Source: Candidatus Falkowbacteria bacterium RIFOXYA2_FULL_38_12
GTDB taxonomy: Bacteria > Patescibacteriota > Patescibacteriia > XYB2-FULL-38-15
NCBI GenBank assembly: GCA_001778095.1
Contig: MFGA01000020.1
Coordinates: 75,805-139,804, forward strand
Reading direction: 5' to 3'
DNA length: 64,000 bases
In this document: positions 1,760 through 56,486 of the stretch, in pieces
How positions within the stretch are numbered: position 1 is the stretch's first letter
Layout of the letters: the number at the start of each line of letters is the position of its first letter
Translations under genes and position numbers: made by a program
Notes under the pieces: model-generated
What the model was told of the DNA's origin: nothing
Databases searched by the model: none
What the model saw: only the letters and a program-made list of their open reading frames with translations

Positions 1760-1819
1760 ACTCTATATTTTGAAATATTAATTCAATTAATTACAGAATA
1801 AGTGGTATTATAAAAACAC

Positions 1820-2332: not shown

Positions 2333-2443
2333 ACTATGAAACGCGATTATTGCCTGAGCTTGTCGAAGGCATAATCGCGTACCAAGACGCCCTTCGACAA
2401 GCTCAGGGAATAAAATTTAGAGCTCAACAATTAATAGTGGCTT

Positions 2444-3196: not shown

Positions 3197-3200
3197 ATTT

Positions 3201-38775: not shown

Positions 38776-39426
38776 ATGTCATACAACAATTCTGAACCCG
38801 GTCTTGAAAATTTTGGCGGACAGGATGAAGAAAAAAAAATCGTTGAAGAGGAATTAAAAAAGCCGAGTACGTTACGTTATGTTGCCGACTATGTTTTAGA
38901 GTTTGCCAAAATCGTAGTCCTTTCATTGGCAATTATTATTCCGGTTAGATATTTTTTGATTCAGCCTTTTTATGTAAAGGGCGCGTCCATGGAACCCAAT
39001 TTTTTTGACCATGAATATTTAATCATCAACGAAATTAGCTATCGCTTTGAAACGCCGGAAAGAGGGGATATTATCGTTTTTAAATATCCTCACGACCCCA
39101 GTCAATATTTTATAAAAAGAGTAATTGGTTTACCGAATGAAACAGTAGAGATTAAGGATAACAAAATTACGATTTACAACAAAGATAATCCAAACGGCAT
39201 TGCCCTTGATGAAAAATATTTGGAAGACACTGTTCAGACTTTTGGCAACAAGACTCTTGCTCTCGGGGTTGATGAATATTTTGCCCTGGGAGACAACCGG
39301 ACAGCCAGCTATGATTCCAGAAGTTTTGGAGCGGTAAATAAAAGTTTCATTGTTGGAAAAGTTTGGGTGCGAGGTTGGCCGTTTAACAAGATTAAAGTTT
39401 TTGAAACGCCGGAATATAATTTTTAA
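38776..39426 (+). CDS. lepB: signal peptidase I
   Basis: S26 family. Ser box GASMEPN, Lys box KRVIGLPNETVE, GDNR motif. Confidence 0.85.
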   Translation: MSYNNSEPGLENFGGQDEEKKIVEEELKKPSTLRYVADYVLEFAKIVVLSLAIIIPVRYFLIQPFYVKGASMEPNFFDHEYLIINEISYRFETPERGDIIVFKYPHDPSQYFIKRVIGLPNETVEIKDNKITIYNKDNPNGIALDEKYLEDTVQTFGNKTLALGVDEYFALGDNRTASYDSRSFGAVNKSFIVGKVWVRGWPFNKIKVFETPEYNF

Positions 39427-42069: not shown

Positions 42070-43980
42070 ATGTTTAAAAAAAAGACAGCCTTAAAGTTTT
42101 TATTAGCCCTAGTTTTACTTGTGGGAGGTTTTTTGTTTGTCCAAAATGTTTTCGCTCAAGATATTGCCGGCATGGACATTGTGAACGAAAATATCGCTTT
42201 GTCCGCCGATGACCCAAGAATTATCGCCGCAAGGATTATTAGAATAGCTTTGGGATTTTTAGGAATAATAGCCGTCTGCATAGTCTTGTATGGAGGTTTT
42301 TTATGGATGACTTCAGCCGGCAATGAAGAAACTATTGGTAAGGCAAAAAAAGTTTTGATCAATGGATTGATCGGTTTGATCATAATTTTAATGGCTTTTG
42401 GCATTACCCAATTTGTTTTAAATTCTCTGCTTGGCAGGGTCGGGGGAGGAGCCGGCGGGGGAGGCGGGTCACCATTAATCGGGCGATATAGCGGAGCCTT
42501 GGGTAATGGAATTATTGAGAGTCATTATCCGCCACGCGGAGGGACGGGAATTCCACGTAATACAAAAATTATCGTGACATTCAAGGAAAAAATGTTACTT
42601 GAGTCTTTGGTTAACAATTATAATGATAACGGAACGCCGGACAATATTGCGGATGATGTGGTTACTAAAAATGACAATGGCACGCCCGGCAATCCAGCAG
42701 ATGATTGGATGGAAATCAATAGCGAGAATGTTAGAATCTTTAAATCAAGCGAAGGAGAACTTGGCACGGAGCGAGTCCCGAACTATTTATCATCAAGCCA
42801 GGTAAGGGTTTCCTTTACGGCTGATCTGAAAAATTTTGTTTTTGATCCGATTCCACTGCTTGGTAGTCCGACGGAAAATATTTGGTATACAACAGCCTTA
42901 AAGCCGGGCATAGAAAAATCAAACGGCGACAATGCTTTTGCCGGAGCTTTCCGTGACGGATATGCTTGGGATTTTGAAGTGAGCACGATTATTGACGTAA
43001 CTCCGCCACAAGTAGTCAGCGTTATTCCAAGAAAAGATTCTGTAAATCCGCGCAATATAAAAGTGCAAATAAATTTTAATGAAGCAATGGATCCGACAAC
43101 TGTTTCCGGAAGTACTTTTGGCGAGGAGGCTTTAAGATTTAATAATGTTTTAACCACTGATGCTCTTGATCGCGAGGTTGCCGGAACGTGGAGTATTGGT
43201 AATCAATATAAAACAATAGAATTTGTAACTAATGACAAGTGTGGGACAAATTCTTGTGGAGGCGATGTTTATTGTCTTCCGGGAGATGAAACAATCAGCG
43301 TTCTGGCCATTGCCGCAAGATTAGGGAGTAGTCCGCCGGAGGCCGAGATGCCTTATGACGGTATTGTTGATGTTTGCGGTAATTCTTTGGATGGAAATAG
43401 CAACGGCCGAGCCGAAGGACAGTCTCTGGAAGGGAGAAGCGCTATTGGTGGAGATAATTATTCATGGCTTTTTAAAACAAACGACACTATTGATTTAGTT
43501 CCGCCAACAATCAGCGCGGTTACTCCAATGCCGGAAACTGAAAGCGTGGCTTTCGCCGTTCCGGTAGAATTAACCTTTTCAAAATTAATGAGTATTACGA
43601 GTTTTACAACCAGCAATATTTCCTTTCAGGATAATCAACGCGATGAATGCGCGGTTTGGTTTTTTCTGGATGGCGACAATTTACAAGCGGACGGAGCTCC
43701 GGTTAGGGGATCTGATGATATCGCCATACGCACAAAAGCGAGAGTCAGTCATGAAAACTTATTGCCGACAGGTGGAGTTTGTTCTGACGATAGACCGGTA
43801 GAAGGACCGTTAGCAATGGATGGCGAGGGTTCATTGGTTTATTATTTTCCAGTTGCCAATTCGGATGTTCAAGATTTGTTTCAAAATTGTTTTTATAGAC
43901 CCATCGGACCGGCCGATGGTCAGACTTGCGTTGTTGGAAGAGATGGAAATTTGCCAGCTGACTGCGAGCCATGGAGATAA
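42070..43980 (+). CDS. secreted surface protein with VirB2/TrbC-pilin-like N-terminal anchor and Big_5-type Ig-like domains
   Basis: Signal peptide, then two hydrophobic helices separated by a short charged loop, then a poly-Gly linker. Repeated D.TPP.V....P........I...F.E.MDP.TV Ig-like modules. Confidence 0.6.
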   Translation: MFKKKTALKFLLALVLLVGGFLFVQNVFAQDIAGMDIVNENIALSADDPRIIAARIIRIALGFLGIIAVCIVLYGGFLWMTSAGNEETIGKAKKVLINGLIGLIIILMAFGITQFVLNSLLGRVGGGAGGGGGSPLIGRYSGALGNGIIESHYPPRGGTGIPRNTKIIVTFKEKMLLESLVNNYNDNGTPDNIADDVVTKNDNGTPGNPADDWMEINSENVRIFKSSEGELGTERVPNYLSSSQVRVSFTADLKNFVFDPIPLLGSPTENIWYTTALKPGIEKSNGDNAFAGAFRDGYAWDFEVSTIIDVTPPQVVSVIPRKDSVNPRNIKVQINFNEAMDPTTVSGSTFGEEALRFNNVLTTDALDREVAGTWSIGNQYKTIEFVTNDKCGTNSCGGDVYCLPGDETISVLAIAARLGSSPPEAEMPYDGIVDVCGNSLDGNSNGRAEGQSLEGRSAIGGDNYSWLFKTNDTIDLVPPTISAVTPMPETESVAFAVPVELTFSKLMSITSFTTSNISFQDNQRDECAVWFFLDGDNLQADGAPVRGSDDIAIRTKARVSHENLLPTGGVCSDDRPVEGPLAMDGEGSLVYYFPVANSDVQDLFQNCFYRPIGPADGQTCVVGRDGNLPADCEPWR

Positions 43981-44075
43981 AGTGAAAGGTTAAAAGTGAA
44001 AGATGAAAAATTAACGAGTTTTCAACTTTCAACTTTTAACTGTAACTTTACACTTTTCATTTTTCACTTTTAATT
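43981..44075. repeat. AAAGTGAAAA/GTTAAAAGT palindromic element
   Basis: agtgaaaggttaaaagtgaaagatgaaaaatt ... aacttttaactgtaactttacacttttcatttttcacttttaattt. Confidence 0.7.
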
Positions 44076-44079
44076 TACG

Positions 44080-47000
44080 TTGATGCTAAGCAAAAAGACA
44101 GCTCTAAAATTTACACTATCCCTCATCGTACTTATGGGAAGTCTTTTGTTTGTCCAAACGGTTTTTGCGCAAGATTTTGGGACTGATGTTGTCGGCGAAA
44201 ATATTGCTCTAGTGGATGCCGGTGATCCCAGAGTTGTCGCCGCAAGGATTATCAGAATAGCTTTGGGATTTTTGGGAATTATTGCTGTTTGCATAGTTTT
44301 GTATGGAGGCTTTTTATGGATGACTTCAGCCGGCAACGAAGAGACTCTTGGTAAGGCAAAAAAGGTTTTAACCAGCGGTTTGATCGGACTTATCATTATT
44401 TTAATGGCTTTTGGTATTACTCAATTTGTTTTGAGTAGATTGACAGAGGCAACAGGGGTTGATGGCGGAGGGGGTGGCGGAGGCGGCGGAGGGGGTGGCG
44501 GAGGCTTGCCTTCTGACGCTTTTTTAGTAAGAAGCATTCAGCCAAATGGCGCTATTCCCATTCGTAATGTCATTGTCAGAGTTCTTTTTAATAAAAACGT
44601 AAATGCAGATAGTCTAAGAGTGGCGGGAAATTTTGTAGTGCGTCGGGTTTCCGACAACACGCCAGTAGAAGGAATAATAAATCTAAATGGTAATCTTGCG
44701 GAATTTGTTCCCAATGCCGATTGTCCCGAACCAAATGCTGATAGAAAATGTTTTGATAGTGATACTGAATTTAGAGTGGAATTAGCTACTGGGATAAGAA
44801 GCGAGACTGGAAAGAGTTTGATGTGTGGAGGATTGGCTCCGTCTTGTCGTGGAACTTTCACAACTGGAAATTTGGTTGATGTTACCGGCCCCGAGGTTGA
44901 TGTTACTTTTCCTGATGATGGTCAGCCGGTGAGTGCCGACGCGATTATAAGTATTGAAGCGCATGCGATTGACGATGCGGGAATTTCTTATTTGGATTAT
45001 TTTGTTAATAACAACCTTTTGGGTCGGGACGCTCCGGAGGGGCCGACTGTTCGAGATTATTTTTCGGCTACCGATTGGGATACAACCGGAATAGCCTCGG
45101 GGACAAAATATAAATTAAAGGCCACAGCTTTTGATATTGATTCAAACAATACAAACTCAAACGGCGTAGGGGTGATTGTTAGAGCTGCGCATTGTTTTAA
45201 TGCGTTTAAAGATCTTGATGAGATCCAAGTTGATTGTGGCGGAGTTGATTGCGGTTTATGTGACGGCGGAGCTTGTGTTAATGATGATGAGTGTCGTAGT
45301 GGAATTTGTTTAAACGGAATTTGTCGGAGCTTGCCGGTTATCGCTAGGGTTGCTCCCAGCGATGGCGCAGTAGGAAATTTTATAACAATATTTGGCGAGC
45401 ATTTTGGCAATGTTCACGGTTCGGTTTATTTTCAGGATCACATCGAAGGCAATTTGCCGAGAGGTTGTGTAGTTGGAGACGTTTGGCAGGATAGACAAAT
45501 TATCGTTGAGGTCCCGGCAGGAGCATTGGACGGGCCGATTTCCGTTGTTATTCCTCCACCGGACGGAGCGCTAGCTTCAGACTATACGGACAGGACGAAT
45601 GATGAACGAGGTCCGTTGTTGCCTGATTTTGACGTGAATGAAATTGAACGTCCGGGAATTTGCGCAATTAATCCGAAAGAAGGAGAACCAAAAGCTGAAG
45701 TGAGGGTTTTGGGAACTCATTTTGGTGACCAGCAGGGAGACAGTTTGATTAATTTTGGAGGGACAAGAGCCGAAAGAATTTTGGATTGGGGAGAATCAAG
45801 TATTAGGGCAACAGTTCCCTTGATAGCCCCGGCGGTTGTTCCCGTTCAAGTAGTAAAAGATGAAGAAAATAGCAATCCTATTAATTTTACCGTTCTTCAA
45901 TCTGCCGCGACTCCAAAAATTTTAAGTTTCTCTCCGACAAAAGGGCCGGAAGGGGAATATATAACCATTTTAGGTTCAAGTTTCGGCGACACTCCCGGTA
46001 AAGTTGATTTTGTTGCGCCGGACGGAACAATTTATTTGGCGGCAACTGATTTTCCGGAGGTCTGCGGAGCTAATTGGTGGAAAGATGACGCAGTGATTAT
46101 TAAAATACCGAAAGAAGCAAGGATTATTCTTCCCGGGCCAAAATATACTTTAAAATTAACGGCAAATAGCGGCCTTGTTGATGATACTTCGGATTTAACA
46201 CCGGCAACTCTCGAAATTATTGGCGGGGCGCCAAAACCGGGAATTTGTCGTATTTTTCCGGACAACGGACCGGCTGGTCTTGAGGTTGCAATTGATGGGG
46301 AAAGATTGGGGTTGAGAGGAATTTTAAATTTTTGGAGAAATAAGGTTGCTCTAACAAATTCGTGGAAAGTGGATCAGGTTGTTGGAGTCGTGCCAGTCGG
46401 ATCAGAAACCGGGCCAATCAATGTTTCGGTCGGCGATAATTTAAGCAATAATGTAAATTTTAACGTTCGCGATTGTCGCGACGCGAGAACGCCATGCGGA
46501 GAAGGAGAAGAATGTTGTCGGGATGGATCATGTCGAGCGGATGGAGAATGCGCGGAAGCGCCGGGTAGCGGACATTATTTTTGGCGTTTTTCCACCGGTG
46601 AGCTACCAATAAATCCCAGAGTGGTGGAATATTGCGGTCCGGCTGATGAACCAAGAAGATTAAACCCGTCACCTTCACCTTGGAATAAAAGAGAAGGTGG
46701 AAACAATGTTTGCATTAATGCCAGGATCACGGCCAGATTTAATGTAAAAATGAACAATGAATCATTGACAACACATGGGAATATTGTTGTGGAAGAATGT
46801 GCCGGTCCTGACGCGGAAAATCCTTGTCTTGAAAAAAGAGTAGTTGAGGGAGAAATTAATCCTTTAGTTGTAAATGATGCTCTTTTACCAAGAGGAATTG
46901 GATCAGATTCATTTGAGTTTGTTTTGCCAGCGGGCATTCTATTTGAACAAAATAAAGTTTATCAAGTTACTTTAAAAGGTGGTTCATTTGAAGATCCCGG

Positions 47001-50000
47001 ACTTGCAAGTGTTGCCGGGTTGCTTTTAGACGGAGATAAAGACGGAGAAGAGGGTGGAGATTATATTTTTGAATTTAAAACAAGGAATACTGATGAGTTG
47101 TGCGAAATAGGTTCAATCGGAATCATGCCTCCAATCGCAACACTGACTGAACAATGGATAGAAGATGAAGAAATTGTCGGATCAGAATTGGAGTATACCG
47201 GTTTGTGCTATGCAGAGGGGGATATATGTTTAACTCTAAATTGTAGAAACTATGATTGGAGATGGAAATCATCTGACGATCCGTTAAATCCAAAGGTTTC
47301 ATTGCTGGAAGTGGAAGATGATGAAGGCGAAGTGATTGAAGAGAAGGCACTTGTCAGGGCAGTAGCGGAGACAGATATAAACCCCGCGACTGGTCTAAGT
47401 CAACCAGTAATAATAACTGGCGCGATCCCAGTTGAAAGAAAGTCTGGAGAGGGAGATTTAACTATTAGTTTTACAGATCCAAAAGTAATTGAAAAATGGC
47501 CTGATTGTCGAGAGGCCTGCAAGAATTCGGAAGTAGGCGTTAAATTTAATACATGGATGGATGAAGAAATTGCCGGCGATCCTCAAAATATAAAGTTATA
47601 TATCTGGCGTTGCGGTAATAGTGTTATTGATCATGGCGAAGATTGTGATGACGGAAATATTGTTTCCGGCGATGGTTGCAGTAGTAGTTGTCTAAATGAG
47701 GGAACAAAACTTTGTCTCGAATTTGATCCGGCCGTCAGAGAAGTATCGGTCGAGGATTCTTGTTGCGGAAATGGACGGCGCGATCCGGGCGAAGATTGCG
47801 ATGGTAATCCTTTTCCGGCGAATTGCCGAGTAGATGGATTGGCTGACAATTGTCTTAATGAAGGAACGGCTGTGATCGGCGACGGTGGAAGTTGTGGTAA
47901 TAGTATAGTTGAAGAAGGTGAAGATTGCGATCCGCCGGATCTTGCTTTGCCACCGGGAAGTCGTGGGTGTAGCGTGGAATGTTTGAATCAAGGGACTTCC
48001 GGACTATTTCCGGCGCCCGGAGGTATTGTCGGAGTTTTACCTCGATATTCTTCAGTAAGCCTAAGCGAAGGGAAATGGGAACACAAACTGAATTTTGATT
48101 TTCCTGTCGGTTTTTCTCTTCTTCCTAATACTTGGTATAGGGCGGTAGTTTCGGGAGCTCAAAAAAGCGTTAGCGGAGTTGCTCTCACGGAATTGAATTA
48201 TGACGATATACCTGACGAAAGACATTCTTTAGATTCATATTCTTGGGCGTTTAGAACCAAAAGCGATGATTCTTTATGCGCTGTTGATAAAATTGAAGTG
48301 AGCCCGAGGGAAGCGCGGGTTAGATTTATTGGAGCAAAAGTTGATTTTAGGTCAATGCCTTTTGGCGCGCCGGATGAATGTAGCCCTAATGGCCAGAAAT
48401 TGAGAGCGATGAGCTATCCTTGGGTTTGGAATTCAACAGTAGAGGAAGTGGGAACTCTTCCGGCTCCTCGTTCCGATAGATTCCCCGGTTGTGGCAATGG
48501 TGTTGTGGAATTTGGTGAAGATTGCGACGATGGAAATATACTTCCGGGTGATGGTTGCGCCGGGCCGGGAGATAACGCCTGCTTAAATGAGGGTGAGAGC
48601 GCGTGCGCCTTTGGAGAAGGTATGTGTATAGTAGATAAACGTTGTATTTGGAATGAAGCTGATGGAGGAAGATGTATTAAAAAAACTATCTGCGGAAATA
48701 GAGCAGTAGAGATAGGCGAAGATTGCGATGATGGAGATAGAGATTCGGGAGACGGATGCAATAATAAATGTTTGAATGAGGGGTCAGTCGCCGGAGGATC
48801 TGTCTGTGGAGATATGAAGATTGGTATTGGTGAAGACTGCGATGACGGAAATACTCGATCGGGAGATGGATGCAGTAATCTTTGTTTGAATGAAGGGACT
48901 ATTCTTGACAGAAGAATTGATCCTCTGCAAACAGTAACGGCAAAGGGGCTAAGAGTTGATCATGCTCGCGAGGACACTACGGCAATAAGCGCTGAAACAG
49001 ATGGAAAAAAAGGTGAGGGCAATTTTACTTTAGCTTGCAGTTATAATCTACCGGACAATCCTTGCCCGGAAGACGACGAAAGGGGTGATATTTATGGAAT
49101 TGGTAATAATTCTTGCTGTTATCCAAAGCCAATTATTGAAACCTGTAATCCGTCAGGCGCGGCTATTTGTTCCAATAAACCGGAAGGGGAAGCGGTTTGT
49201 CGCAATTCTTTAATCTCAATAACTTTTGATAAAGAAATGGATCCGGCCTCACTGGAAGAAAATATTATTGTCGCTGGCAATTATAATGTTTGCCCGGAAG
49301 GAACGATTGACGTTGGTAATGGCGATATCAGACTTCGTGAATTTATAAATTGGTGCGCGGTAACGGGAGGAATTACCGTTAGTCAAATTGTTCCGGAAGA
49401 AGGCGAAAAAAAGACAAGAGTTGATTTTAATTTATCCAAACTTTTGGATCCGAGCATAAAATATAAAGTTATTGTTCGCGGGAATAATTTATTGACTCGA
49501 GATAGAGTAGAGGGAGCAAGGAGTATTAACGGAGTGGAGCTGGGAGAGACTAATTTTACTTTTAGAGAAGGGGAGGCGAGTTATCAAAGCAGGAGCTGGA
49601 CTTTTTGGACAAACGATCAAATTTGCGCCCTGTCTTCAGTTAAAATAAATCCCGAAAGTCATCTTTTTACCAGCAGTTTGGATCCGGAAAATCGGGCTGA
49701 TTTTATAGCAACCGCCTTGGATGCAAGAAATAATCCTATTTCGTCAATTCCCGGATCTTATTCTTGGAGATGGGATTGGACTTCAAGTTATATTGACATA
49801 GCCGCTCTTTCTCTTTGCGCTGATCCAAACGGATGTAGCACAAGAACCGTGACGGCGCAAAATCAAAACGGAGAATCATTAATTTCCGCCAAAGCGACGA
49901 TAACAGCAGATGAAGAAGTCCCGGGCGCAAGAGGTCAAAGCAAGTTTGGCATTTCCAATGTCGCTGTTTTTCTTTGCGAAAATCCTTGGCCAACAGCGGC

Positions 50001-53000
50001 AACAATAAGAGAGGACGGAGGATATCTTGATCGTAATTATAATTTCAAATTTTACTATTGCCGAGACAAAGGGGAATTTTTGCCTGACGATGATCTACCC
50101 TGTTTTCCCTCGGCGGAAGTGGGCGGAGCGATTGCCGTAAGGGATACCGAGAGAATCGGCGTATTAAGAGAAGATGGTTTGTTGAGAGAATATTTATTTA
50201 CGTTTCCGGGAACATTTTATTGTAGTGTTTCACAAACTTTATGCGATCCTGCCGCCCTTCCTGACGCTCTGGGTTTCTGTCCTGCCGGAACCGGAGATTG
50301 CCGACCGGCCCCGGATGCCATTGGTATTAGAATTTACGAAAACGTTAATCATCTAACTCCGACCGAATGGTATGGAAAGCAAGGATTAGCTGTGGGAAGT
50401 CCGGAGACAATTAATATTGACGGCTATGAAGCAATACGAGATGGTCGGACAGTCTATATTTCGGCGGCCAATGACACGATGGGTCCGGACACTCTTTATA
50501 CAAATATTTATTTGGTCTCTTATAACGACGGAGCTAATTCGGATACAATAAATATCTATAATCAGATAATACAAAATTTAAAATTTAATACTAATTTGAG
50601 AAATGCGGATCTGCGGGCATGTCTTTACAGGGCTTGCAGTAATAATGCCAGCAAAAGTTGCAATATGGATGCAGACTGTCGCGCGGAGCCTGACGTTACT
50701 TCAACTTGTTTGCCTTTATCTTATTGCACTAAAGATATGGATTGTCCGCCGGCGGTTCCGGTTGCGGGAACAATTAACGAATGTCAAGCGCCAAAAGATA
50801 AATTAACCAGAGACATGAGGAGGATTATTGACCTTAATAATCTAAAAAGAGTAATAGATTCTTATAAAACTGTTCATGGAAGCTATCCAAAACTGGAAGC
50901 GGGAACTTATATCAGATCATTGGTCTCCAGCGTTTGGGGTTCTTGGATCGGGGCGTTGGGCAAAGACTTAGGCGCATCATTACCCGTTGATCCGATCAAC
51001 AAAATTGTTAATTGCGAGGGGGCGGGTTTTGATAAGGAAACATGTTGGAATCTAGAATCAAAAACGTATCAATGTCCGGCCGGTTCGCATGTTTATCAAT
51101 ATAAAGTGAACGGAGACGGGACATATAAATTAAAGAGTGATTTTGAGTATAGGGCAAACGATCGCCTCGTTGATCTAAAAACGCTATGGGTAGGAAATTT
51201 ATCTAATGTGTTTGAAATACAAGGATCTTGCGATGGCGCTCCCATAAGAAGCACCGGCGTTTGCGGAGATGGAAATATAGACGGTCCCGAGGAATGCGAG
51301 CCGAGAGCTAATCCCCCGCGAGACAGGGCGTGTACACTTGAGATTGATGGAGAAGAAGTGGCTGGCAGACAAAGAGAAGAGTGTAACCCAGCTGACTGCA
51401 CTTGGCGCGAGCTAGGTGGCTGTTCGGTTCTCTGTGGGGATGGCATTCGCCAAGTGGGTGAAGAATGTGACGAAGGGCCTCTGGGCGGACGAATAGCTGG
51501 TGGAGGAATGTCTCCGGAAAATCAGTATTTTTGTACTAGAGAATGTGAAATGATGGGAGGTTATTGTGGTGATGGAGGAGAACCACAGGTAGCTTATGGA
51601 GAAAGATGCGATAATGGAGTTTCTTGCACGTTAAGGTTGCCTTGTGCAAGTGTGGATGGATGTGTCTGTGGATCTTGTATAGTTCCTAGGGGAAAGAAAA
51701 GCTGTGGAAATGGATCTTACGGATTGAGCGTTAGTGGAGAACCTTGGTGCAAAACAGATTGTTCGGGCTTCGGTCCATATTGCGGAGATGAGGTTGTAAA
51801 TGGAGCTGAACAATGTGATGGAGATTCTATTACTTCAAAAGGAATTTGTGTTCCAGAAGGAATACCAGAACTAAACGATGTGGATACGGTTCTTGGAAGT
51901 TATACCTCATGTAACAACAATGAAGATTGTTCGGACGGTACTTGTGTTATTTGTGATAATTCTAGAGAAGGTTATTCTCAATCAAGAACGAAAAACTGTG
52001 GAGAGTTGGGGGTACCAGGGTTAGCTCTTCTATGTGACTGGAATAGATGGGGCGCTTGCGAGACGGCAGGTACTTGCGGAAATGGGACAAAAGAAGGGGA
52101 CGAGGAATGTGATGATGGAAATGAAAATAATAATGATGGTTGTATTATCACCTTGGAAAATTCTCCATCGGGTCCTGATAATTGCAAACTAGCTCGTTGT
52201 GGAGATGGATTTACTAAGATTGGTGCAGAAGCCTGTGACGTCGGCGTAGGCAATGGCAGGATTTGCAGGGCAAACTATGGTGAAAATTGTAATTATTGCG
52301 ATGTTAATTGCGCTATAAAAGTTATTACCGGACCTCGTTGCGGAGATGGAATAATAAATGGAAGAGAGACATGCGATGATCGAGCGGGAACTAGTTTGTT
52401 ATATAAAATAATTGAGGAACAAAAATATTTTGCTGATAATCGTGGCGATAGTTTAGGAGTAGTTGTTCCCGTGAGTATGGATTCGGCCTGCTCAATAGAC
52501 AGCGCTCTTCCGGGCATAGATGGTTCCTGCCCGGGGCAACCGCCAACAGGAGCACTGAAATTTAATCGGGCGGTTTGTTCAGCGGATTGCGCTTCAACTT
52601 GTCCCCCGGCTTATAAAATACAAACATTAACCTTTGGTCCGGAAGGACGAAGTTCAATTGAATTAGGAAGTAACGAGGAGGTCTCAGTTAATCTTCCCGC
52701 TTGTCGTGTTTTGGGTGACATTAAAGTTGATGTTGATTTGAGTAATGTTACTCAAACTCCGTTGAATGTGGTTTTTGTGACGGATAGATCGGGGAGTATG
52801 GGGTGGGGAACAACATCAAGTTCTGGACCAAATCTTTCTTGCAGTGAAGACAGAACGAGGATGGGTTGTGCTAGAGATGCGCTTACGGAAGCAATAAATT
52901 TATTATTTGATAGTTATGAAAATATTCGCATTGGCTTGGTAAGTTATGGTAATAATGTCCCGGTTGGTGCATGGCATGACTTGCTGGGTTTTTTAGGGAA

Positions 53001-53658
53001 AGACATATTAATTTCCGCAGTTGGTTCCTATACTCCGACTTTAGGTGCTACTAACATTTCCGCTGGGGTAAAGAAGGCAAAAGATATATTAAACAATGAA
53101 GATGGTAAAAAAATAATTGTTTTAATGAGTGATGGAGAAGCGACGAGACCTCATGAAACCCCAGCGCTAAGAGCAGTTTATCCTGCTTGTGATAGATATA
53201 GTAGAGACGATTTTGCCGCATGCGTTGCAGGAGAAGAGGTTAGATTGGCTAAAGGTAGAGATATAGAAATTTACACAATTTTATTTTATGGTCCCACATC
53301 CGCAGAAGCTAATATGGAGAGTTGGGCAAGTTCTCCCACGGAGCCTTACGCTAACATAAGCGCTCCCGATAATGACTTGGATGAAATTTATCGTTCTATT
53401 ATAGCCTCTCTAACATCCTCAAGTATAAATTTAAATTTACAAGAAACCGGAGGTGTGCGAGGGGGTGCAGAGATACCTCTTTTAAGAAGTATCTTTTGTA
53501 AGGAAGAAGAACAAACAGATATTCCCTTTAGTATAGATTTTGGCGGGATAGGCAAGGCGCGTGTAAGTAATCTAAAAGCTTATATATGCCCTGGCCCGCC
53601 GTATCCACCCGAAGATCTTTGGGAATGTGTCGGAGACTCTTGCGATGTGAGTCTATAG
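44080..53658 (+). CDS. giant (3192 aa) cell-surface protein: pilin-like N-terminal anchor, poly-Gly linker, IPT/TIG and Ig-like domains, ~12 cysteine-rich (GEDCDDGN...GDGC) repeats, embedded pseudopilin-like segment, C-terminal vWA domain
   Basis: N-terminal 125 aa ~85-90% identical to the 42070 protein. Four IPT-like modules (ITIFGEHFG, VRVLGTHFG, ITILGSSFG, VAIDGERLG). Repeats CGN..GEDCDDGN...GDGC..C of the Myxococcus-type cysteine-rich repeat. vWA MIDAS VVFVTDRSGSM and IIVLMSDGEAT. Confidence 0.7.
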   Translation: MMLSKKTALKFTLSLIVLMGSLLFVQTVFAQDFGTDVVGENIALVDAGDPRVVAARIIRIALGFLGIIAVCIVLYGGFLWMTSAGNEETLGKAKKVLTSGLIGLIIILMAFGITQFVLSRLTEATGVDGGGGGGGGGGGGGGLPSDAFLVRSIQPNGAIPIRNVIVRVLFNKNVNADSLRVAGNFVVRRVSDNTPVEGIINLNGNLAEFVPNADCPEPNADRKCFDSDTEFRVELATGIRSETGKSLMCGGLAPSCRGTFTTGNLVDVTGPEVDVTFPDDGQPVSADAIISIEAHAIDDAGISYLDYFVNNNLLGRDAPEGPTVRDYFSATDWDTTGIASGTKYKLKATAFDIDSNNTNSNGVGVIVRAAHCFNAFKDLDEIQVDCGGVDCGLCDGGACVNDDECRSGICLNGICRSLPVIARVAPSDGAVGNFITIFGEHFGNVHGSVYFQDHIEGNLPRGCVVGDVWQDRQIIVEVPAGALDGPISVVIPPPDGALASDYTDRTNDERGPLLPDFDVNEIERPGICAINPKEGEPKAEVRVLGTHFGDQQGDSLINFGGTRAERILDWGESSIRATVPLIAPAVVPVQVVKDEENSNPINFTVLQSAATPKILSFSPTKGPEGEYITILGSSFGDTPGKVDFVAPDGTIYLAATDFPEVCGANWWKDDAVIIKIPKEARIILPGPKYTLKLTANSGLVDDTSDLTPATLEIIGGAPKPGICRIFPDNGPAGLEVAIDGERLGLRGILNFWRNKVALTNSWKVDQVVGVVPVGSETGPINVSVGDNLSNNVNFNVRDCRDARTPCGEGEECCRDGSCRADGECAEAPGSGHYFWRFSTGELPINPRVVEYCGPADEPRRLNPSPSPWNKREGGNNVCINARITARFNVKMNNESLTTHGNIVVEECAGPDAENPCLEKRVVEGEINPLVVNDALLPRGIGSDSFEFVLPAGILFEQNKVYQVTLKGGSFEDPGLASVAGLLLDGDKDGEEGGDYIFEFKTRNTDELCEIGSIGIMPPIATLTEQWIEDEEIVGSELEYTGLCYAEGDICLTLNCRNYDWRWKSSDDPLNPKVSLLEVEDDEGEVIEEKALVRAVAETDINPATGLSQPVIITGAIPVERKSGEGDLTISFTDPKVIEKWPDCREACKNSEVGVKFNTWMDEEIAGDPQNIKLYIWRCGNSVIDHGEDCDDGNIVSGDGCSSSCLNEGTKLCLEFDPAVREVSVEDSCCGNGRRDPGEDCDGNPFPANCRVDGLADNCLNEGTAVIGDGGSCGNSIVEEGEDCDPPDLALPPGSRGCSVECLNQGTSGLFPAPGGIVGVLPRYSSVSLSEGKWEHKLNFDFPVGFSLLPNTWYRAVVSGAQKSVSGVALTELNYDDIPDERHSLDSYSWAFRTKSDDSLCAVDKIEVSPREARVRFIGAKVDFRSMPFGAPDECSPNGQKLRAMSYPWVWNSTVEEVGTLPAPRSDRFPGCGNGVVEFGEDCDDGNILPGDGCAGPGDNACLNEGESACAFGEGMCIVDKRCIWNEADGGRCIKKTICGNRAVEIGEDCDDGDRDSGDGCNNKCLNEGSVAGGSVCGDMKIGIGEDCDDGNTRSGDGCSNLCLNEGTILDRRIDPLQTVTAKGLRVDHAREDTTAISAETDGKKGEGNFTLACSYNLPDNPCPEDDERGDIYGIGNNSCCYPKPIIETCNPSGAAICSNKPEGEAVCRNSLISITFDKEMDPASLEENIIVAGNYNVCPEGTIDVGNGDIRLREFINWCAVTGGITVSQIVPEEGEKKTRVDFNLSKLLDPSIKYKVIVRGNNLLTRDRVEGARSINGVELGETNFTFREGEASYQSRSWTFWTNDQICALSSVKINPESHLFTSSLDPENRADFIATALDARNNPISSIPGSYSWRWDWTSSYIDIAALSLCADPNGCSTRTVTAQNQNGESLISAKATITADEEVPGARGQSKFGISNVAVFLCENPWPTAATIREDGGYLDRNYNFKFYYCRDKGEFLPDDDLPCFPSAEVGGAIAVRDTERIGVLREDGLLREYLFTFPGTFYCSVSQTLCDPAALPDALGFCPAGTGDCRPAPDAIGIRIYENVNHLTPTEWYGKQGLAVGSPETINIDGYEAIRDGRTVYISAANDTMGPDTLYTNIYLVSYNDGANSDTINIYNQIIQNLKFNTNLRNADLRACLYRACSNNASKSCNMDADCRAEPDVTSTCLPLSYCTKDMDCPPAVPVAGTINECQAPKDKLTRDMRRIIDLNNLKRVIDSYKTVHGSYPKLEAGTYIRSLVSSVWGSWIGALGKDLGASLPVDPINKIVNCEGAGFDKETCWNLESKTYQCPAGSHVYQYKVNGDGTYKLKSDFEYRANDRLVDLKTLWVGNLSNVFEIQGSCDGAPIRSTGVCGDGNIDGPEECEPRANPPRDRACTLEIDGEEVAGRQREECNPADCTWRELGGCSVLCGDGIRQVGEECDEGPLGGRIAGGGMSPENQYFCTRECEMMGGYCGDGGEPQVAYGERCDNGVSCTLRLPCASVDGCVCGSCIVPRGKKSCGNGSYGLSVSGEPWCKTDCSGFGPYCGDEVVNGAEQCDGDSITSKGICVPEGIPELNDVDTVLGSYTSCNNNEDCSDGTCVICDNSREGYSQSRTKNCGELGVPGLALLCDWNRWGACETAGTCGNGTKEGDEECDDGNENNNDGCIITLENSPSGPDNCKLARCGDGFTKIGAEACDVGVGNGRICRANYGENCNYCDVNCAIKVITGPRCGDGIINGRETCDDRAGTSLLYKIIEEQKYFADNRGDSLGVVVPVSMDSACSIDSALPGIDGSCPGQPPTGALKFNRAVCSADCASTCPPAYKIQTLTFGPEGRSSIELGSNEEVSVNLPACRVLGDIKVDVDLSNVTQTPLNVVFVTDRSGSMGWGTTSSSGPNLSCSEDRTRMGCARDALTEAINLLFDSYENIRIGLVSYGNNVPVGAWHDLLGFLGKDILISAVGSYTPTLGATNISAGVKKAKDILNNEDGKKIIVLMSDGEATRPHETPALRAVYPACDRYSRDDFAACVAGEEVRLAKGRDIEIYTILFYGPTSAEANMESWASSPTEPYANISAPDNDLDEIYRSIIASLTSSSINLNLQETGGVRGGAEIPLLRSIFCKEEEQTDIPFSIDFGGIGKARVSNLKAYICPGPPYPPEDLWECVGDSCDVSL
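44464..44505 (+). repeat. perfect 21-bp tandem duplication encoding a poly-Gly linker
   Basis: ggcggagggggtggcggaggc x2, inside the giant gene (15-residue Gly run). Confidence 0.8.
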
Positions 53659-53685: not shown

Positions 53686-54495
53686 ATGCAAAAAAATACA
53701 AAAATTATTATCGCATTCTTGGTTGGAGCTTTGATTTTATTTGGAGTCGCTTTTGGTTTTTGGTATTCAAAACAAAAAAATAACACTGAAAATTTGCCAG
53801 AAAATCAAGAAAAAATAGTGGAAGAAGTCCCGGAAAATAAAACATTTGAATTGGCAAGAATAGAAAAAGAAAAAAGTAAATGCGCGGAAAATGGAGAAGA
53901 GGGATGTGGAGACAATGTTTTAATTATGGAAGCAATAAATGATTTAAAAGTGGAAGCATGCAACGAAGTCGTGGATGAAAAAGCGAGAAATAATTGCATT
54001 ACGGAAATTGCCATTCGCCAAAATGATGAAAAAAGTTGCGATCTCCACAAAGACGAGGCGGAAAAAAATACTTGTTTGAGTTTGATCTTGGGAAATAAAG
54101 CCAGAGAGAGCGATGATATGGCAGTTTGTCTTGCGGTTCCCGGCGAAAGTTATAGAGATTCTTGCTTTTTTAGCATTGTGAATAAAAAAAATGACGCAAA
54201 ATATTGCGACGAGCTGGGAGAGCTAAGAGATAAATGCTTGAATATAATTTTGACCAATAAGGCTTTTGAAGAGGGCGACACAAGTTTTTGCGATAATATT
54301 ACAGACGCCGATTCGCGAGAAAGTTGTTCGGCGGAATTGGGCGGGACGGATTCTGATAATGATGGTCTAAGTAATTCCGACGAAGAAAAATACGGAACTG
54401 ATCCCAAAGATCCGGATAGTGACGGGGATAGTTATCTTGATGGGGCGGAAGTGGAAGCGGGGTATAATCCGAAGGGAGCGGGGAAATTGGAGTAA
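53686..54495 (+). CDS. TM-anchored Cys-rich secreted protein with C-terminal thrombospondin-type-3-like Ca-binding repeats
   Basis: N-terminal TM helix. Regularly spaced Cys pairs. C-terminal DSDNDGLSNSDEE...DPDSDGDSYLDGAEVEAGYNPKGAGKLE. Confidence 0.5.
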   Translation: MQKNTKIIIAFLVGALILFGVAFGFWYSKQKNNTENLPENQEKIVEEVPENKTFELARIEKEKSKCAENGEEGCGDNVLIMEAINDLKVEACNEVVDEKARNNCITEIAIRQNDEKSCDLHKDEAEKNTCLSLILGNKARESDDMAVCLAVPGESYRDSCFFSIVNKKNDAKYCDELGELRDKCLNIILTNKAFEEGDTSFCDNITDADSRESCSAELGGTDSDNDGLSNSDEEKYGTDPKDPDSDGDSYLDGAEVEAGYNPKGAGKLE

Positions 54496-54571: not shown

Positions 54572-55270
54572 ATGTTTGACCAACAACCAGACGACATGTT
54601 TGCCGGAACTGAGCCGGCGAAACAACAAACCTTAAATCCAAATCAAAGGCCGGCTGGCCCCGTCGCGGCCGTAAAGCCAATCTCTCCCACCCCTAATTCA
54701 ATGCCAGTAAATCCCGCTCCTTCACCGATTTCTCGAGATATGTTGGGTGATGAAGAGCCTCAAATTGGCGGAGGTAATAAAAAAGTTTTTTTAGGCATTA
54801 TCGCAGTGGTAGTCGTTTTAATTCTAGGAATTGGCGGATATTTTTTGTGGAGACAGTTATCAACCCCCACTACGCAAGTTTTGGAGAATGGTCCTATTAA
54901 TACTGTTCCCCCGATTACTACGCCCGAAGAGCCGGTTGCGCCGGAAGAAATTGAAGAACCAATCGGTGGTTTGTCCGGCAATGAAATTTCTCCGGACGAA
55001 GCAGTGGCGGATGTAGACACAGATATGGATGGTATTATAGACGACGAAGAACTTAATCTAGGTACGAATCCGATGAAAGTTGATTCTGATGATGACGGAT
55101 TGACTGACAGGGAAGAAGCAAAAATATACAAAACAGATCCATTAAATCCGGATACTGACGGAGATACTTATGGAGATGGACAAGAAGTTAGAGGCGGATA
55201 TAATCCAAACGGTTCAGGAAAGCTTTATGAATTGCCGGTGAATAACGTGGAGAGCGAAGTAGTTGAATAA
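54572..55270 (+). CDS. TM-anchored Pro-rich protein with C-terminal thrombospondin-type-3-like repeats
   Basis: TM helix. DTDMDGIIDDEE...DSDDDGLTDREE...DPLNPDTDGDTYGDGQEVRGGYNPNGSGKL. Confidence 0.5.
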   Translation: MFDQQPDDMFAGTEPAKQQTLNPNQRPAGPVAAVKPISPTPNSMPVNPAPSPISRDMLGDEEPQIGGGNKKVFLGIIAVVVVLILGIGGYFLWRQLSTPTTQVLENGPINTVPPITTPEEPVAPEEIEEPIGGLSGNEISPDEAVADVDTDMDGIIDDEELNLGTNPMKVDSDDDGLTDREEAKIYKTDPLNPDTDGDTYGDGQEVRGGYNPNGSGKLYELPVNNVESEVVE

Positions 55271-55433: not shown

Positions 55434-56486
55434 ATGTTTGGAATTGGAAAAAAATCAGCCACGCCGGTTATTGATCCCGAAGGAATTGCCATAAAGGTGA
55501 TGCCCGAGGAGTTTTATTCTAAAAAAGGTAGTATGAGTCGGCCGGCTAGCGAAGAGCCAAGAACGGCGAGTATTTTGCCCCCACCCATTCCTTCTCCCGC
55601 GAGTCCCGTCTCTGCCCCGTTTGATCCCAACAGGCAACAACTTGCTACCCCGCGAGAGAAACCAACGTTGATTATTGTTTTGATTGCCGTGGCAGTCCTT
55701 TTGATTGGTGGCGCTATTTTTCTTTTTATCCAAAGCTTGAATATAGGAAAAGAACCGGTTAAAAGCGAGCCCATTGTTGAAGAAGAGCCAATAAAAGAAC
55801 CTCCGGCTCCTCCCGCTCCTATTTGTGGCGATGGGCAATGCGAAGATGACGAGAATTCAATAAGTTGTCTTTCCGATTGTCCGCTTCCGCCAGAACCAGA
55901 ACCCGTGGCTCCGGTTATTTTGCCAATGGCTCCCGACAGTGACGGAGATGGATTAACGAGTATGGAGGAAGAACTTTTTGGAGTAAGTGGCGAAAATTCG
56001 GACACGGATAGTGATGGTTATAAAGATGGGTTGGAAGTAATTAATTTGTATAATCCTTCGGGCTTTGCCCCTCAAAAAATAGAAGAAACAAAGCTAGTTG
56101 AAATTTATAAAAACCCAACATACAATTTTCAAGTTTTCTATCCGAAGAATTGGTTAGCCGGAGCTCTTAATGAAACCAACGAGGAAATAATGATCACGTC
56201 AGCAACGGGAGAATTTATTCAAATTATTGTTGTCGAAAATAAGGAAGGATTAGCTCTAATGGATTGGTATCTCGAAAAAGCGCCGGAGGTAAAACCGGCA
56301 GACGTGGGAACGGCTGCGACGAAAAACGGATTATTCGGTATTAAAACCCCGGATGAGTTGACGGCATATTTTAGTATCGGAGAAAAAATATTTGCTATCA
56401 GTTATAATGTTGGAGTAAAAACAGAATTAAACTATAAAAGCACTTTTGAAATGATTATAAGAAGTTTTAAAGTCAATGTTCGGTAA
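55434..56486 (+). CDS. TM-anchored Pro-rich protein with thrombospondin-type-3-like repeats and C-terminal globular domain
   Basis: TM helix. CGDGQCEDDENSISCLSDC. DSDGDGLTSMEEE...DTDSDGYKDGLEVINLYNPSG. Additional ~150-aa C-terminal domain. Confidence 0.5.
   Translation: MFGIGKKSATPVIDPEGIAIKVMPEEFYSKKGSMSRPASEEPRTASILPPPIPSPASPVSAPFDPNRQQLATPREKPTLIIVLIAVAVLLIGGAIFLFIQSLNIGKEPVKSEPIVEEEPIKEPPAPPAPICGDGQCEDDENSISCLSDCPLPPEPEPVAPVILPMAPDSDGDGLTSMEEELFGVSGENSDTDSDGYKDGLEVINLYNPSGFAPQKIEETKLVEIYKNPTYNFQVFYPKNWLAGALNETNEEIMITSATGEFIQIIVVENKEGLALMDWYLEKAPEVKPADVGTAATKNGLFGIKTPDELTAYFSIGEKIFAISYNVGVKTELNYKSTFEMIIRSFKVNVR

Follow-up and report, generated by a model that had tools for sequence, protein, structure and literature searches.

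Patescibacteria make up a large share of the uncultured bacteria and apparently live attached to other cells. Their T4SS is unusual in being a monoderm system with VirB2-like pilins, and in the one species tested epibiotic growth requires it; we know of no demonstration of the Patescibacterial VirB2-like pilus as a filament. The VirB2-like pilins present in this system are stand-alone proteins of ~100-150 aa, encoded in arrays of 2-11 genes that are often near virB4 (PMC12102498, PMC10633639), and pilins within one array are at most 54% identical (PMC12102498). Adhesins described for other T4SS are VirB5 at the Gram-negative pilus tip and PrgB in enterococcal pCF10 (PMC12857230, PMC12102498). 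PrgB-type adhesins are reported absent from Patescibacteria, and a 2025 survey did not find an adhesin for the Patescibacterial T4SS (PMC12102498). Among other surface proteins, PilB of Streptococcus sanguinis is a type IV pilin module fused to a vWA module with a MIDAS (PMC8179133), and a giant adhesin of Mobiluncus mulieris has 7,651 residues with Ig-like repeats (PMC10619420).

The locus described here lies in a 64-kb window, by which we mean the whole stretch of DNA that was analysed. The organism is an ultra-small CPR (Patescibacteria) bacterium with a small genome, in line with the small-genome bacterium supposed in an earlier reading of the letters (the sequence-only reading). Two adjacent genes, ORF A and ORF B, have the following features.

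42070..43980, + strand: ORF A, a 636-aa candidate modular pilin with signal peptide, VirB2-like hairpin, Gly linker and Ig-like/Big_5 domains
42070..42156, + strand: ORF A signal peptide, aa 1-29, from the sequence and a model helix at 4-29
42205..42432, + strand: ORF A pilin core, aa 46-121, with DPR motif, helix 1, loop TSAGNEETIGKAKK and helix 2
44083..53658, + strand: ORF B, a 3,191-aa candidate modular pilin and giant surface protein, from its open frame and domain searches
44218..44445, + strand: ORF B pilin core, aa 46-121, with 88% aa and 84% nt identity to the ORF A core
44464..44505, + strand: ORF B poly-Gly linker G14, aa 128-141, directly after the second helix

Both ORFs of the sequence-only reading stand, with one adjustment. 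That reading gave ORF B 3192 aa, and the list of open reading frames starts it at a TTG (44080); because the ATG at 44083 is the position aligned with the start of ORF A, 44083-53658 with 3,191 aa is the likelier gene. Its product contains 152 Cys, and 471 acidic vs 272 basic residues. BLASTP of ORF A against ORF B returned a single match, residues 1-125 in both at 77% identity (E = 1.6e-53), with no further similarity beyond residue 125, and none of the other ORFs in the 64-kb window has the shared N-terminal module. Since 125 aa are matched at E = 1e-53 between adjacent genes, the similarity is not due to chance. Over the 125-aa module nucleotide identity is 84%, and the shared module noted in the sequence-only reading is real. 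The '~90%' nucleotide identity first given was slightly high, and the coordinates of the shared stretch in ORF B were 2 nt off register: 42200-42430 compared in register with ORF B (offset 2,013 nt) shows 84%, with 87% in the best part. After the hairpin, ORF A has the linker GGGAGGGGG where ORF B has G14, and in orthologues this position is taken by a Gly-, Ser- or Pro-rich stretch. ORF A then continues with ~500 aa of Ig-like/Big_5 domains and a C-terminal region with Cys.

For ORF B more than 340 homologues of 2,100-4,700 aa were found, nearly all with PF18895, and for the C-terminal part of ORF A more than 349 of 580-660 aa, nearly all with PF18895 and PF13205; the closest relative of ORF A among GTDB species representatives is 45% identical. 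Full-length homologues of ORF B (3,000-3,400 aa) span 99-100% of it at 42-48% identity, which argues against its being chimeric or made of fused ORFs. That the gene is such an artefact, or that the shared 5' end is an assembly duplication, has nothing in its favour but the unusual length. The frame runs uninterrupted for 9.6 kb and is even in composition, the A-B arrangement and the shared 300-nt module (78-82% identity) recur in independently assembled genomes, and between the two module copies 16% of bases differ, for the most part synonymously. We regard an artefact as extremely improbable.

The module itself gave 488 matches in a phmmer database search, of which the best 120 are nearly all Patescibacterial proteins of 103-224 aa with PF18895; the best matches have 43-79% identity and E-values of 1e-20 to below 1e-42. 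A profile built from the stand-alone pilin matches found 23,351 cluster representatives at E <= 1e-10. Position by position, the module in 120 giant proteins is conserved in the same way as in free pilins, with the shared pattern DPR...LGFLGIIAV..ILYGGFLWMTA.GNE..AKK...IGL.IIL. Judged from these comparisons, the N-terminal module of A and B is a clear relative of the stand-alone PF18895 VirB2-like pilins; the E-values to PF18895 proteins and the common conservation pattern favour a pilin-like module, as had been proposed, over a generic signal-anchor. The PF18895 (T4SS_pilin) profile gave scores under its 26.6-bit gathering threshold with both window proteins, 23.3 bits for ORF A (E = 7e-5) and, for ORF B, 18.8 bits with the whole protein and 22.4 bits with its first 400 aa. 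Relatives built like A and B reach 28-38 bits, above the cut-off, and precomputed PF18895 assignments are present on nearly all A and B homologues. NF045849 (80 positions), the Mbov_0395-family pilin-like conjugal transfer protein of Mycoplasma ICEs, matches the hairpin at aa 56-118 in A (E = 3e-8, 33 bits) and B (E = 7e-7, 29 bits), both below its cut-off of 40 bits, and this match ties the module to monoderm conjugation systems. The Mycoplasma proteins are small and ICE-encoded, and A and B are unlike them in both respects. Poly-pilin proteins, which have 2-17 hairpins in one chain, show that the hairpin tolerates a C-terminal extension.

An AlphaFold2 model of the module (101 sequences; mean pLDDT 79.6, at least 89 over residues 51-120) has a signal helix at 4-29, a helix at 49-81, a turn at 82-85 and a helix at 86-125, and the loop between the two module helices is Lys-rich (TSAGNEETIGKAKK). 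Sequence and model agree with the signal peptide, two helices with Lys-rich loop, and poly-Gly linker of the original description. By the -3/-1 rule, a signal peptidase I site is predicted in ORF A at VFA|QD, where this enzyme would cleave A and B. From the positive-inside rule and VirB2 precedent, we infer that both ends of the mature hairpin are on the outer side; the hairpin would then sit in the cytoplasmic membrane with its Lys-rich loop inside (VirB2 topology), and because its ends would lie outside, the whole C-terminal part of A and B would be extracellular. Foldseek comparison of the modelled hairpin with the PDB gave nothing below E = 0.001 and only non-specific matches, with ion channels and ATP synthase subunit c at the top. 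A profile of the module, run against PDB sequences, picked up spurious matches only and no VirB2. Since a two-helix hairpin is too simple for a discriminating fold search, family membership rests on sequence. A type IV pilin (PilB-like) identity was rejected, there being no N_methyl/prepilin motif and instead a Sec-type signal peptide and hairpin.

A and B thus have the Sec signal peptide, two hydrophobic helices and short basic loop of VirB2/TrbC-type pilins, and they share with the Patescibacterial VirB2-like pilins (PF18895 / PF04956 TrbC) the same signal peptide, hairpin, basic loop and conserved residues. They depart from both in size and in setting. VirB2/TrbC pilins are small (mature ~70-120 aa), whereas A and B, at 636 and 3,191 aa, lie far outside that range, with the module fused to 500 and 3,000 extracellular residues, respectively. 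VirB2/TrbC pilins are encoded with VirB4, VirB3 and VirB6, whereas the region in which A and B stand contains housekeeping genes and no T4SS genes. Pfam scans and inspection of all ORFs found only housekeeping genes in the window apart from the A-B cluster, and no VirB4, VirB3, VirB6, coupling protein, free pilin or type IV pilus gene in the 64 kb; nor was there T4SS machinery or a free pilin gene in the 10 kb around the A-B pair in five related loci (L001-L004, L007). Free pilin genes on related contigs form tandem arrays of 6-7, and the arrays inspected were not adjacent to VirB4; one of these contigs is equal in length to a contig with a giant homologue. The link of A and B to a T4SS depends on a different genome of the class, that of locus L003 (GCA_004297205.1, ABY1), which Table S1 of PMC12102498 lists as VirB4-positive.

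Alternatively, the hairpin could be a pilin-family element taken over to serve as a two-helix anchor in the membrane, with A and B never entering a pilus: they would be surface fibrils or adhesins rooted in the cytoplasmic membrane, crossing the wall on the Gly linker and making no contact with a T4SS. The location of the A-B locus away from T4SS genes in the window and the five related loci agrees with this, as do the constitutive housekeeping context kept across loci, a hairpin fold without discriminating structural match, a predicted topology (ends out, basic loop in) that suffices for anchoring, and the size of B, which makes polymerisation awkward. However, a passive anchor should keep hydrophobicity, not sequence, and the core is the best-conserved segment of B: across nine ORF B orthologues conservation is 65% in the pilin core, 39% in the whole protein and 29% in the VWA domain. 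The near-invariant residues of free pilins are kept, including the extracellular DPR and the cytoplasmic GNE..AKK loop; because such residues are kept also outside the hydrophobic helices, the core is presumably more than a passive anchor.

The A and B modules also appear to be homogenised within genomes, which again tells against simple anchoring. In a comparison of 75 codons in six genomes, A and B modules differ by dN 0.08-0.15 and dS 0.5-1.0 in four of the six, whereas dS between module orthologues of different genomes runs from 1.2 to saturated. Such values are consistent with the two modules evolving in concert, and the lower synonymous divergence of A from B in the same genome, compared with that between orthologues, supports the earlier suggestion that the duplicated 5' module is a substrate for recombination. 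The module copies are 77-88% identical, vs at most 54% within known pilin arrays. Core conservation, retention of free-pilin residues and the apparent homogenisation of A and B indicate a specific shared partner. Simple anchoring is a possible explanation, to which we give distinctly less than an even chance.

The genes around the A-B pair that matter to its interpretation are as follows.

38776..39426, + strand: signal peptidase I (LepB); at each of the syntenic loci it stands three genes upstream of ORF A
53686..54495, + strand: downstream gene 1, 269 aa, single-pass membrane protein that has Cys-rich repeats and, at its C-terminus, a TSP3 calcium-binding repeat; syntenic
54572..55270, + strand: downstream gene 2, 232 aa, single-pass membrane protein, Pro-rich at its cytoplasmic N-terminus, with two TSP3 repeats on the outer side
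55434..56486, + strand: downstream gene 3, 350 aa, single-pass membrane protein with a Cys motif, weak TSP3 and a weak PsbP-like domain

The A-B pair has the same housekeeping context, lepB-hisS-yqeY ... ybeY-dgkA-ftsA-ftsZ, in five other genomes of the ABY1 class (those of the five loci named above). At each of the five the giant gene is immediately preceded by an ORF A counterpart, and two or three membrane proteins, TSP3-repeat or related ones, come after the pair. Downstream gene 2 is kept in four of the five loci (it is absent in L003), and the position of downstream gene 3 is occupied in relatives by a gene of 306-369 aa. LepB would be the likely enzyme for removal of the module's signal peptide. 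Variability of the locus, for which comparative genomics had been proposed, was seen only at the distal tip of ORF B, and synteny with vertical conservation rules out reading the locus as a variable island. A bAvd and reverse-transcriptase cassette near the L003 locus was considered as a DGR link and rejected, its repeat pair targeting a 256-aa ORF and not A or B. Promoter- and terminator-like sites between 41300 and 57400 were no commoner than in shuffled sequence.

A conserved context beside ftsA/ftsZ would be just as compatible with an envelope component made constitutively. Together with the TSP3 proteins, A and B might form an envelope scaffold or S-layer-like coat, that is, a calcium-stabilised layer or a division-associated structure, in which the VWA and other tips would be lattice or wall contacts and not host-binding sites. 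We consider this improbable. The domains downstream of the module are as follows.

42994..43185, + strand: ORF A Big_5 Ig-like domain, aa 309-372, the best-scoring stretch (E = 2.1e-15, 57.7 bits, cut-off 23.6)
44890..46482, + strand: ORF B proximal stalk, with Big_7 at aa 270-341, an EGF-like Cys knot and TIG/IPT at aa ~430-800
47611..48942, + strand: ORF B Cys-rich acidic repeats (DUF4215/TIGR02232), blocks I and II, aa 1177-1310 and 1470-1620
49663..51402, + strand: ORF B region without Pfam match, aa 1861-2440, conserved, with Ig-like and PsbP/LpqN/Mog1-like folds
51262..52392, + strand: ORF B Cys-rich block III, aa 2394-2770, seven degenerate repeats
52765..53385, + strand: ORF B distal VWA with MIDAS (VWA aa 2895-3101; DRSGS aa 2901-2905)

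The domains that the sequence-only reading assigned to the two proteins were recovered in each case. Big_5 is present in ORF A, and ORF B also carries Big_5. The IPT/TIG modules of ORF B appear as three matched stretches in aa 311-710 with a weaker match at ~721-793. The Cys-rich repeats, put earlier at about a dozen, number 13 in three blocks by the pattern CG[DN]...E.C[DE]; TIGR02232 matches six stretches with 81.5 bits vs a cut-off of 20.8, and DUF4215 scores 33.1 and 52.4 bits vs a cut-off of 27. The C-terminal VWA domain is matched by PF13519 (43.7 bits) and PF00092 (39.1 bits), both above cut-offs, and its MIDAS, as read from the sequence, is complete, with DRSGS, the Thr in GATNIS and the Asp in LMSDGEAT. 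An enzyme or toxin domain at aa 1861-2440 of ORF B was rejected: this region has no PDB sequence match, and its AlphaFold2 model contains only Ig-like and PsbP/LpqN/Mog1-like folds. The fold matches resemble Ig domains of intimin, invasin and S-layer proteins, and no enzyme fold was among them. The C-terminal part of ORF A had no match to PDB sequences.

The VWA part of ORF B is covered in only ~14-29% of 120 giant homologues. In the C-terminal 650 aa of the homologues scanned, Malectin was found in two, a weak CarboxypepD_reg in one and a MopE metal-binding motif in one. These domain matches show a distal tip that is swapped between homologues, with VWA in some, the glycan-binding malectin in others and different ends elsewhere. 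The intact MIDAS, the malectin swap at the tip and the intimin/invasin-like folds are features that suggest an adhesin. In its design, an N-terminal pilin module with a C-terminal adhesive vWA/MIDAS module, ORF B is the same as PilB. PilB belongs to an unrelated class with a class III signal peptide, prepilin peptidase and a single long N-terminal helix, in contrast to the Sec signal and VirB2-type hairpin of A and B; it is several-fold smaller than ORF B, which has a long stalk between the pilin and vWA modules. Giant Ig-like adhesins and the vWA-bearing tip adhesins of sortase pili, such as RrgA and GBS104, resemble B in a long Ig-like/TIG stalk or a vWA/MIDAS binding end, but those proteins are anchored by LPXTG/sortase or secretion-system-specific signals, whereas A and B would be held by an N-terminal pilin hairpin; no LPXTG motif or cell-wall-anchor domain was seen in either protein. 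VirB5 and PrgB have the role that we propose for A and B, a T4SS surface component contacting the target cell, but they are separate proteins of the T4SS cluster, not fused to a pilin, and no sequence relationship to A or B was detected.

We propose that A and B are modular VirB2/T4SS-type pilins that present adhesins and dock into the assembly of free pilins, a reading that we hold to be evenly balanced. The core of A and B would dock into the same assembly as the stand-alone pilins of the ABY1-class tandem arrays, which would be the membrane pilin pool and, from there, a VirB4-type T4SS-driven pilus. A and B may be minor or tip subunits displaying a long stalk, and the distal VWA/MIDAS of ORF B would recognise, with the help of a metal ion, a ligand at the surface of the host cell. 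For the TSP3 calcium-binding membrane proteins, a role in stabilising the acidic Cys-rich stalk is possible. The parts of this proposal differ in strength. That A and B are surface adhesins held by a pilin-family hairpin is quite probable, the adhesin role being deduced from the domains, and is much more secure than their incorporation into a pilus, to which we give somewhat less than an even chance. In a 5-start helix the subunits are tightly packed, and one with an appendage of 3,000 residues could be incorporated only sparsely or terminally. In the strongest form, A and B would be true T4SS pilus subunits, co-polymerised with free pilins by VirB4 at the tip or sparsely, and would be the missing host-binding adhesin; this we think unlikely.

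Literature searches, with most subscription-journal papers outside their scope, found no described fusion of a pilin with a giant protein. What is new is the interpretation, the sequences being already public with annotations that say little, such as IPT/TIG, Ig-like or DUF4215 domain-containing protein. The conserved A-B pair, with its pilin module, very long stalk and swappable tip, is an obvious candidate for the contact-making part of the T4SS, and it provides targets for cryo-ET labelling, metaproteomics, binding assays with recombinant tips and prediction of host range by tip type. If the strongest form of the proposal is correct, A and B would be the first modular pilins of the conjugative-pilus (VirB2) class, and the modular pilin concept, so far applied to type IV pili, would extend to the structurally unrelated conjugative pilins. 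Gene conversion would keep both pilin modules compatible with the shaft, and the exchangeable distal module (VWA, malectin or others) would set the host range.

Two neighbouring genes on the same strand share an N-terminal pilin-like module:

42070-43980, (+) strand, ORF A, 636 aa
44083-53658, (+) strand, ORF B, 3,191 aa (the ORF listing begins at TTG 44080)

The ATG at 44083 was taken as the start of ORF B because it aligns with the start codon of ORF A. BLASTP found one match only between the two proteins, residues 1-125 of each (77% identity, E = 1.6e-53), with no further similarity beyond residue 125, and found the module in no other ORF of the window. In register (offset 2,013 nt), 42200-42430 is 84% identical to its ORF B counterpart at the nucleotide level, and 87% in the best part. 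The near-identical shared module described in the sequence-only reading is real, its "~90%" being slightly high and its ORF B coordinates 2 nt off register. Both proteins open with a signal peptide of typical Sec type, ending VFA↓QD. Next comes a brief polar segment containing a conserved DPR motif, then two hydrophobic helices joined by the loop TSAGNEET(I/L)GKAKK; glycines follow (GGGAGGGGG in A, G14 in B). AlphaFold2, run with 101 sequences, placed helices at 4-29, 49-81 and 86-125 with a mean pLDDT of 79.6, and of 89-97 across ten-residue blocks spanning residues 51-120; signal peptide, paired helices, Lys-rich loop and Gly linker are as first read. The positive-inside rule and the VirB2 precedent predict a mature hairpin with its basic loop inside and both ends outside, which would make the entire C-terminal part extracellular.

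The module was compared with known pilin families. Against PF18895 (T4SS_pilin; curated threshold 26.6 bits), ORF A scored 23.3 bits, whole ORF B 18.8 and its first 400 aa 22.4, all too low to pass; relatives built like A or B did pass, with 28-38 bits. The NCBIfam model NF045849 ("Mbov_0395 family pilin-like conjugal transfer protein" of Mycoplasma ICEs) matched the two proteins at E = 3e-8 and 7e-7, under its cut-off. A 134-aa module query returned 488 proteins, the best 120 of which are Patescibacterial, 103-224 aa long and 43-79% identical; nearly all of these 120 have a precomputed PF18895 match, and some also match TrbC (PF04956) or bear the name "pilin". A profile built from 101 of these sequences, searched against 1.84 billion proteins, matched 69,266 cluster representatives at E <= 1e-3, of which 23,351 also reached E <= 1e-10. 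Per-position consensus and conservation in the modules of 120 giant proteins (ORF B homologues) mirror those of free pilins, the stand-alone PF18895 proteins, with the common consensus DPR..AA..I...LG.LGIIAV.IILY.GFLWMTA.G.E.K...AKK.L....IGL.IIL. Foldseek with the hairpin returned generic hairpins only, and a profile search of PDB sequences gave no genuine match. On the sequence evidence of family matches and shared conservation, the module is placed in the Patescibacterial VirB2-like pilin family, in agreement with the VirB2/TrbC resemblance first proposed. It is like those pilins in sequence, whereas ORFs A and B differ from them in size and gene context.

ORF A carries Big_5 Ig-like domains (Pfam, E = 2e-15) and several cysteines in its C-terminal region. 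The features of ORF B, on the (+) strand, are as follows (residue numbers):

270-341, Big_7, preceded by a Big_5-like stretch
between Big_7 and TIG in listed order, EGF-like cysteine knot
311-710, TIG domains in three matched stretches, with a weaker match at about 721-793
1177-1310 and 1470-1620, Cys-rich acidic repeats in two blocks of three (TIGR02232, 81.5 bits; DUF4215)
next in listed order, further Big_5
1861-2440, conserved region without a Pfam match
2394-2770, seven degenerate Cys-rich repeats
2895-3101, VWA domain; DRSGS at 2901-2905 and downstream Thr and Asp make a complete MIDAS

Cysteines number 152 in ORF B, and its acidic residues are in strong excess. Domain scans and sequence recovered the Big_5 domains of A, and the TIG modules, cysteine-rich repeats and C-terminal VWA domain with intact MIDAS of B, that had been read from the translations.

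The rest of the window has housekeeping CPR content: hydrogenase, glycolysis, ribosomal proteins L10 and L7/L12, tgt, hisS and nrdD/G, together with mraZ/rsmH, a ClpB-like ATPase, recR, dnaB, lepB, yqeY, ybeY, dgkA, ftsA and ftsZ. At the window start (389-4472, (+) strand), translations read by eye resemble a hydrogenase maturase-like radical-SAM protein (HydG/HydE-type) and NiFe hydrogenase small and large subunits, a putative energy-metabolism feature worth attention in a small CPR genome. A 748-aa ORF at 21607-23853 (-) runs against the direction of most genes and is without any Pfam match; it has one mid-protein hydrophobic stretch and, by eye, beta-propeller-like repeats in its C-terminal half.

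More than 340 proteins of 2,100-4,700 aa are homologous to full-length ORF B (closest 42-66% identical). They come from Uhrbacteria, Magasanikbacteria and other Patescibacteria, and nearly all combine PF18895 with Big_5, TIG, DUF4215 and Big_7. For the C-terminal part of ORF A the count exceeds 349; these homologues are 580-660 aa long, and PF18895 and Big_5 occur together in nearly all of them. Such full-length homologues, and independent assemblies with the same A-B arrangement, make an assembly or ORF artefact extremely improbable. Five loci around ORF B homologues all share the order lepB, hisS, (rpsU), yqeY, A-like gene, B-like gene, then one to three TSP3-repeat membrane proteins, a 306-369-aa gene, ybeY, dgkA, ftsA and ftsZ, with an LCP-family (LytR) gene upstream. 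This order is kept even in a Magasanikbacteria scaffold whose giant protein has 36% identity over 28% of ORF B. The shared gene order marks the locus as an ancient cluster passed on vertically in GTDB class ABY1 (class assignment drawn from GCA_004297205.1), neither mobile nor a strain-variable island; the variability raised in the sequence-only reading is confined to the distal part of ORF B.

A scan of GTDB species genomes yielded 15 further loci in Uhrbacteria, Falkowbacteria and other Patescibacteria. Several MAGs with these loci (L008-L010, L012, L013, L020, L022), among them the 1.0-Mb complete chromosome OZ246408.1, are titled "uncultured Gammaproteobacteria bacterium" despite a Patescibacterial-type locus, which is probably a taxonomic mislabel. 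The GCA_004297205.1 locus has a DGR-like cassette just upstream of lepB (L003:2770-5325). Besides a bAvd-like gene and a reverse-transcriptase fragment, the cassette contains two repeats of 125 nt (82% identity), one at the 3' end of a 256-aa ORF (3392-3516) and the other at 3832-3956; its apparent target is this small ORF rather than the pilin-fusion genes. In another related locus, L001, an Avd-family (23S_rRNA_IVP) gene directly follows the giant gene, and arrays of an 8-nt tandem unit (GAGAAACT and variants) lie at L001:919-994 and L001:19309-19432, immediately past the giant gene's stop codon and again about 18 kb upstream. The window has no equivalent of the cassette or the Avd-family gene.

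Conservation along ORF B was uneven. Compared with nine full-length orthologues, the pilin core (aa 46-121) is 65% identical, whole ORF B 39%, and the VWA domain with C-terminal tail 29%. Essentially every one of 120 giant homologues covers ORF B from residue 1 to about 2750, but only 14-29% of them cover the final 400 residues. When the C-terminal 650 aa of seven homologues were scanned, two had a Malectin domain, one a weak CarboxypepD_reg match, one a MopE metal-binding motif, and three DUF4215 alone or nothing. By these alignments ORF B is a conserved root and stalk with an exchangeable distal module, the layout of an adhesin that meets a variable partner with its far end. An S-layer-like or division-associated envelope scaffold would suit the fixed place beside ftsA/ftsZ, the TSP3 partner proteins and a weak similarity to S-layer Ig domains, but tips are swapped among homologues and no lattice or anchoring domain was found, and we regard a scaffold as improbable.

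Within six genomes the A and B cores are 88, 75, 79, 79, 72 and 50% identical, and orthologous cores across genomes 57-80% (pairs involving the window). Synonymous divergence, over a small sample of 75 codons in six genomes, is 0.5-1.0 between A and B within four of the six, versus 1.2 up to saturation between orthologues. Repeat detection also found the common 300-nt module in L001 (82% identity) and L003 (78%). The data fit occasional gene conversion between the 5' ends, in line with the recombination substrate first suggested; such homogenisation implies that the two modules have to remain compatible with one shared partner.

Most Patescibacteria have a T4SS related to monoderm conjugation systems, and 1,948 VirB4-positive assemblies have VirB2-like pilins, often in arrays of 2-11 genes; that survey kept small pilins by filter and reported no adhesin (PMC12102498). 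For Southlakia epibionticum, both T4SS and pilin array proved essential (PMC10633639; PMC12857230). VirB4, VirB6, coupling protein and type IV pilus genes were all absent from the 64-kb window. Table S1 of PMC12102498 lists GCA_004297205.1 as ABY1 with VirB4 present, so at least one genome with this locus has T4SS machinery elsewhere. Related contigs carry free pilin arrays of six and seven genes, neither adjoining VirB4; one array's contig, at 57,276 bp, matches in length the contig that bears a giant homologue, and the two are probably from the same genome. About 60 of the best 150 profile matches have two or more hairpin modules. Such PF18895-family "poly-pilins" from outside the window (P0241, P0245, P0265 and P0283 among them), of which we found no description in the literature examined, have one signal peptide and 2-17 tandem modules (for example 820 aa with 8, 1,147 aa with 11 and 1,775 aa with 17), and C-terminal continuation of a pilin is therefore tolerated.

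A pilin-family hairpin, flexible linker, long multidomain region and MIDAS tip, clustered with calcium-binding membrane proteins, suggest a model. After Sec export and signal peptidase I cleavage (lepB is kept three genes upstream), the hairpin would insert with both ends outside, the stalk would project from the cell, and the tip would show metal-dependent binding to a ligand carried by another cell. That A and B are surface adhesins rooted by such a hairpin we hold with good confidence. The hairpin could serve as a membrane anchor only, a reading that the lack of nearby T4SS genes and the size of ORF B fit and that the sequence constraint on the pilin core speaks against; we give it a fair though lesser chance. 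We favour docking of the inserted hairpin into the assembly that free pilins enter, because the core keeps pilin-specific residues outside its membrane-spanning parts, is under stronger constraint than any other segment and appears homogenised across A and B; incorporation into a pilus is a real possibility, put forward tentatively. Carrying 3,000 residues, such subunits would fit only at the tip or sparsely, in the manner of minor pilins. In design they most resemble PilB of S. sanguinis (PMC8179133), in which a vWA module is grafted onto a type IV pilin; the two pilin classes are unrelated.

Genes of the A and B type are already public under uninformative names, with PF18895 in precomputed Pfam lists. 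Neither the fusion of a VirB2-type pilin with a large adhesin nor this conserved A/B pair is described in the literature searched, which largely excluded subscription journals, and such absence is no proof. ORFs A and B offer a specific candidate for the component that makes contact in an essential, poorly understood system.
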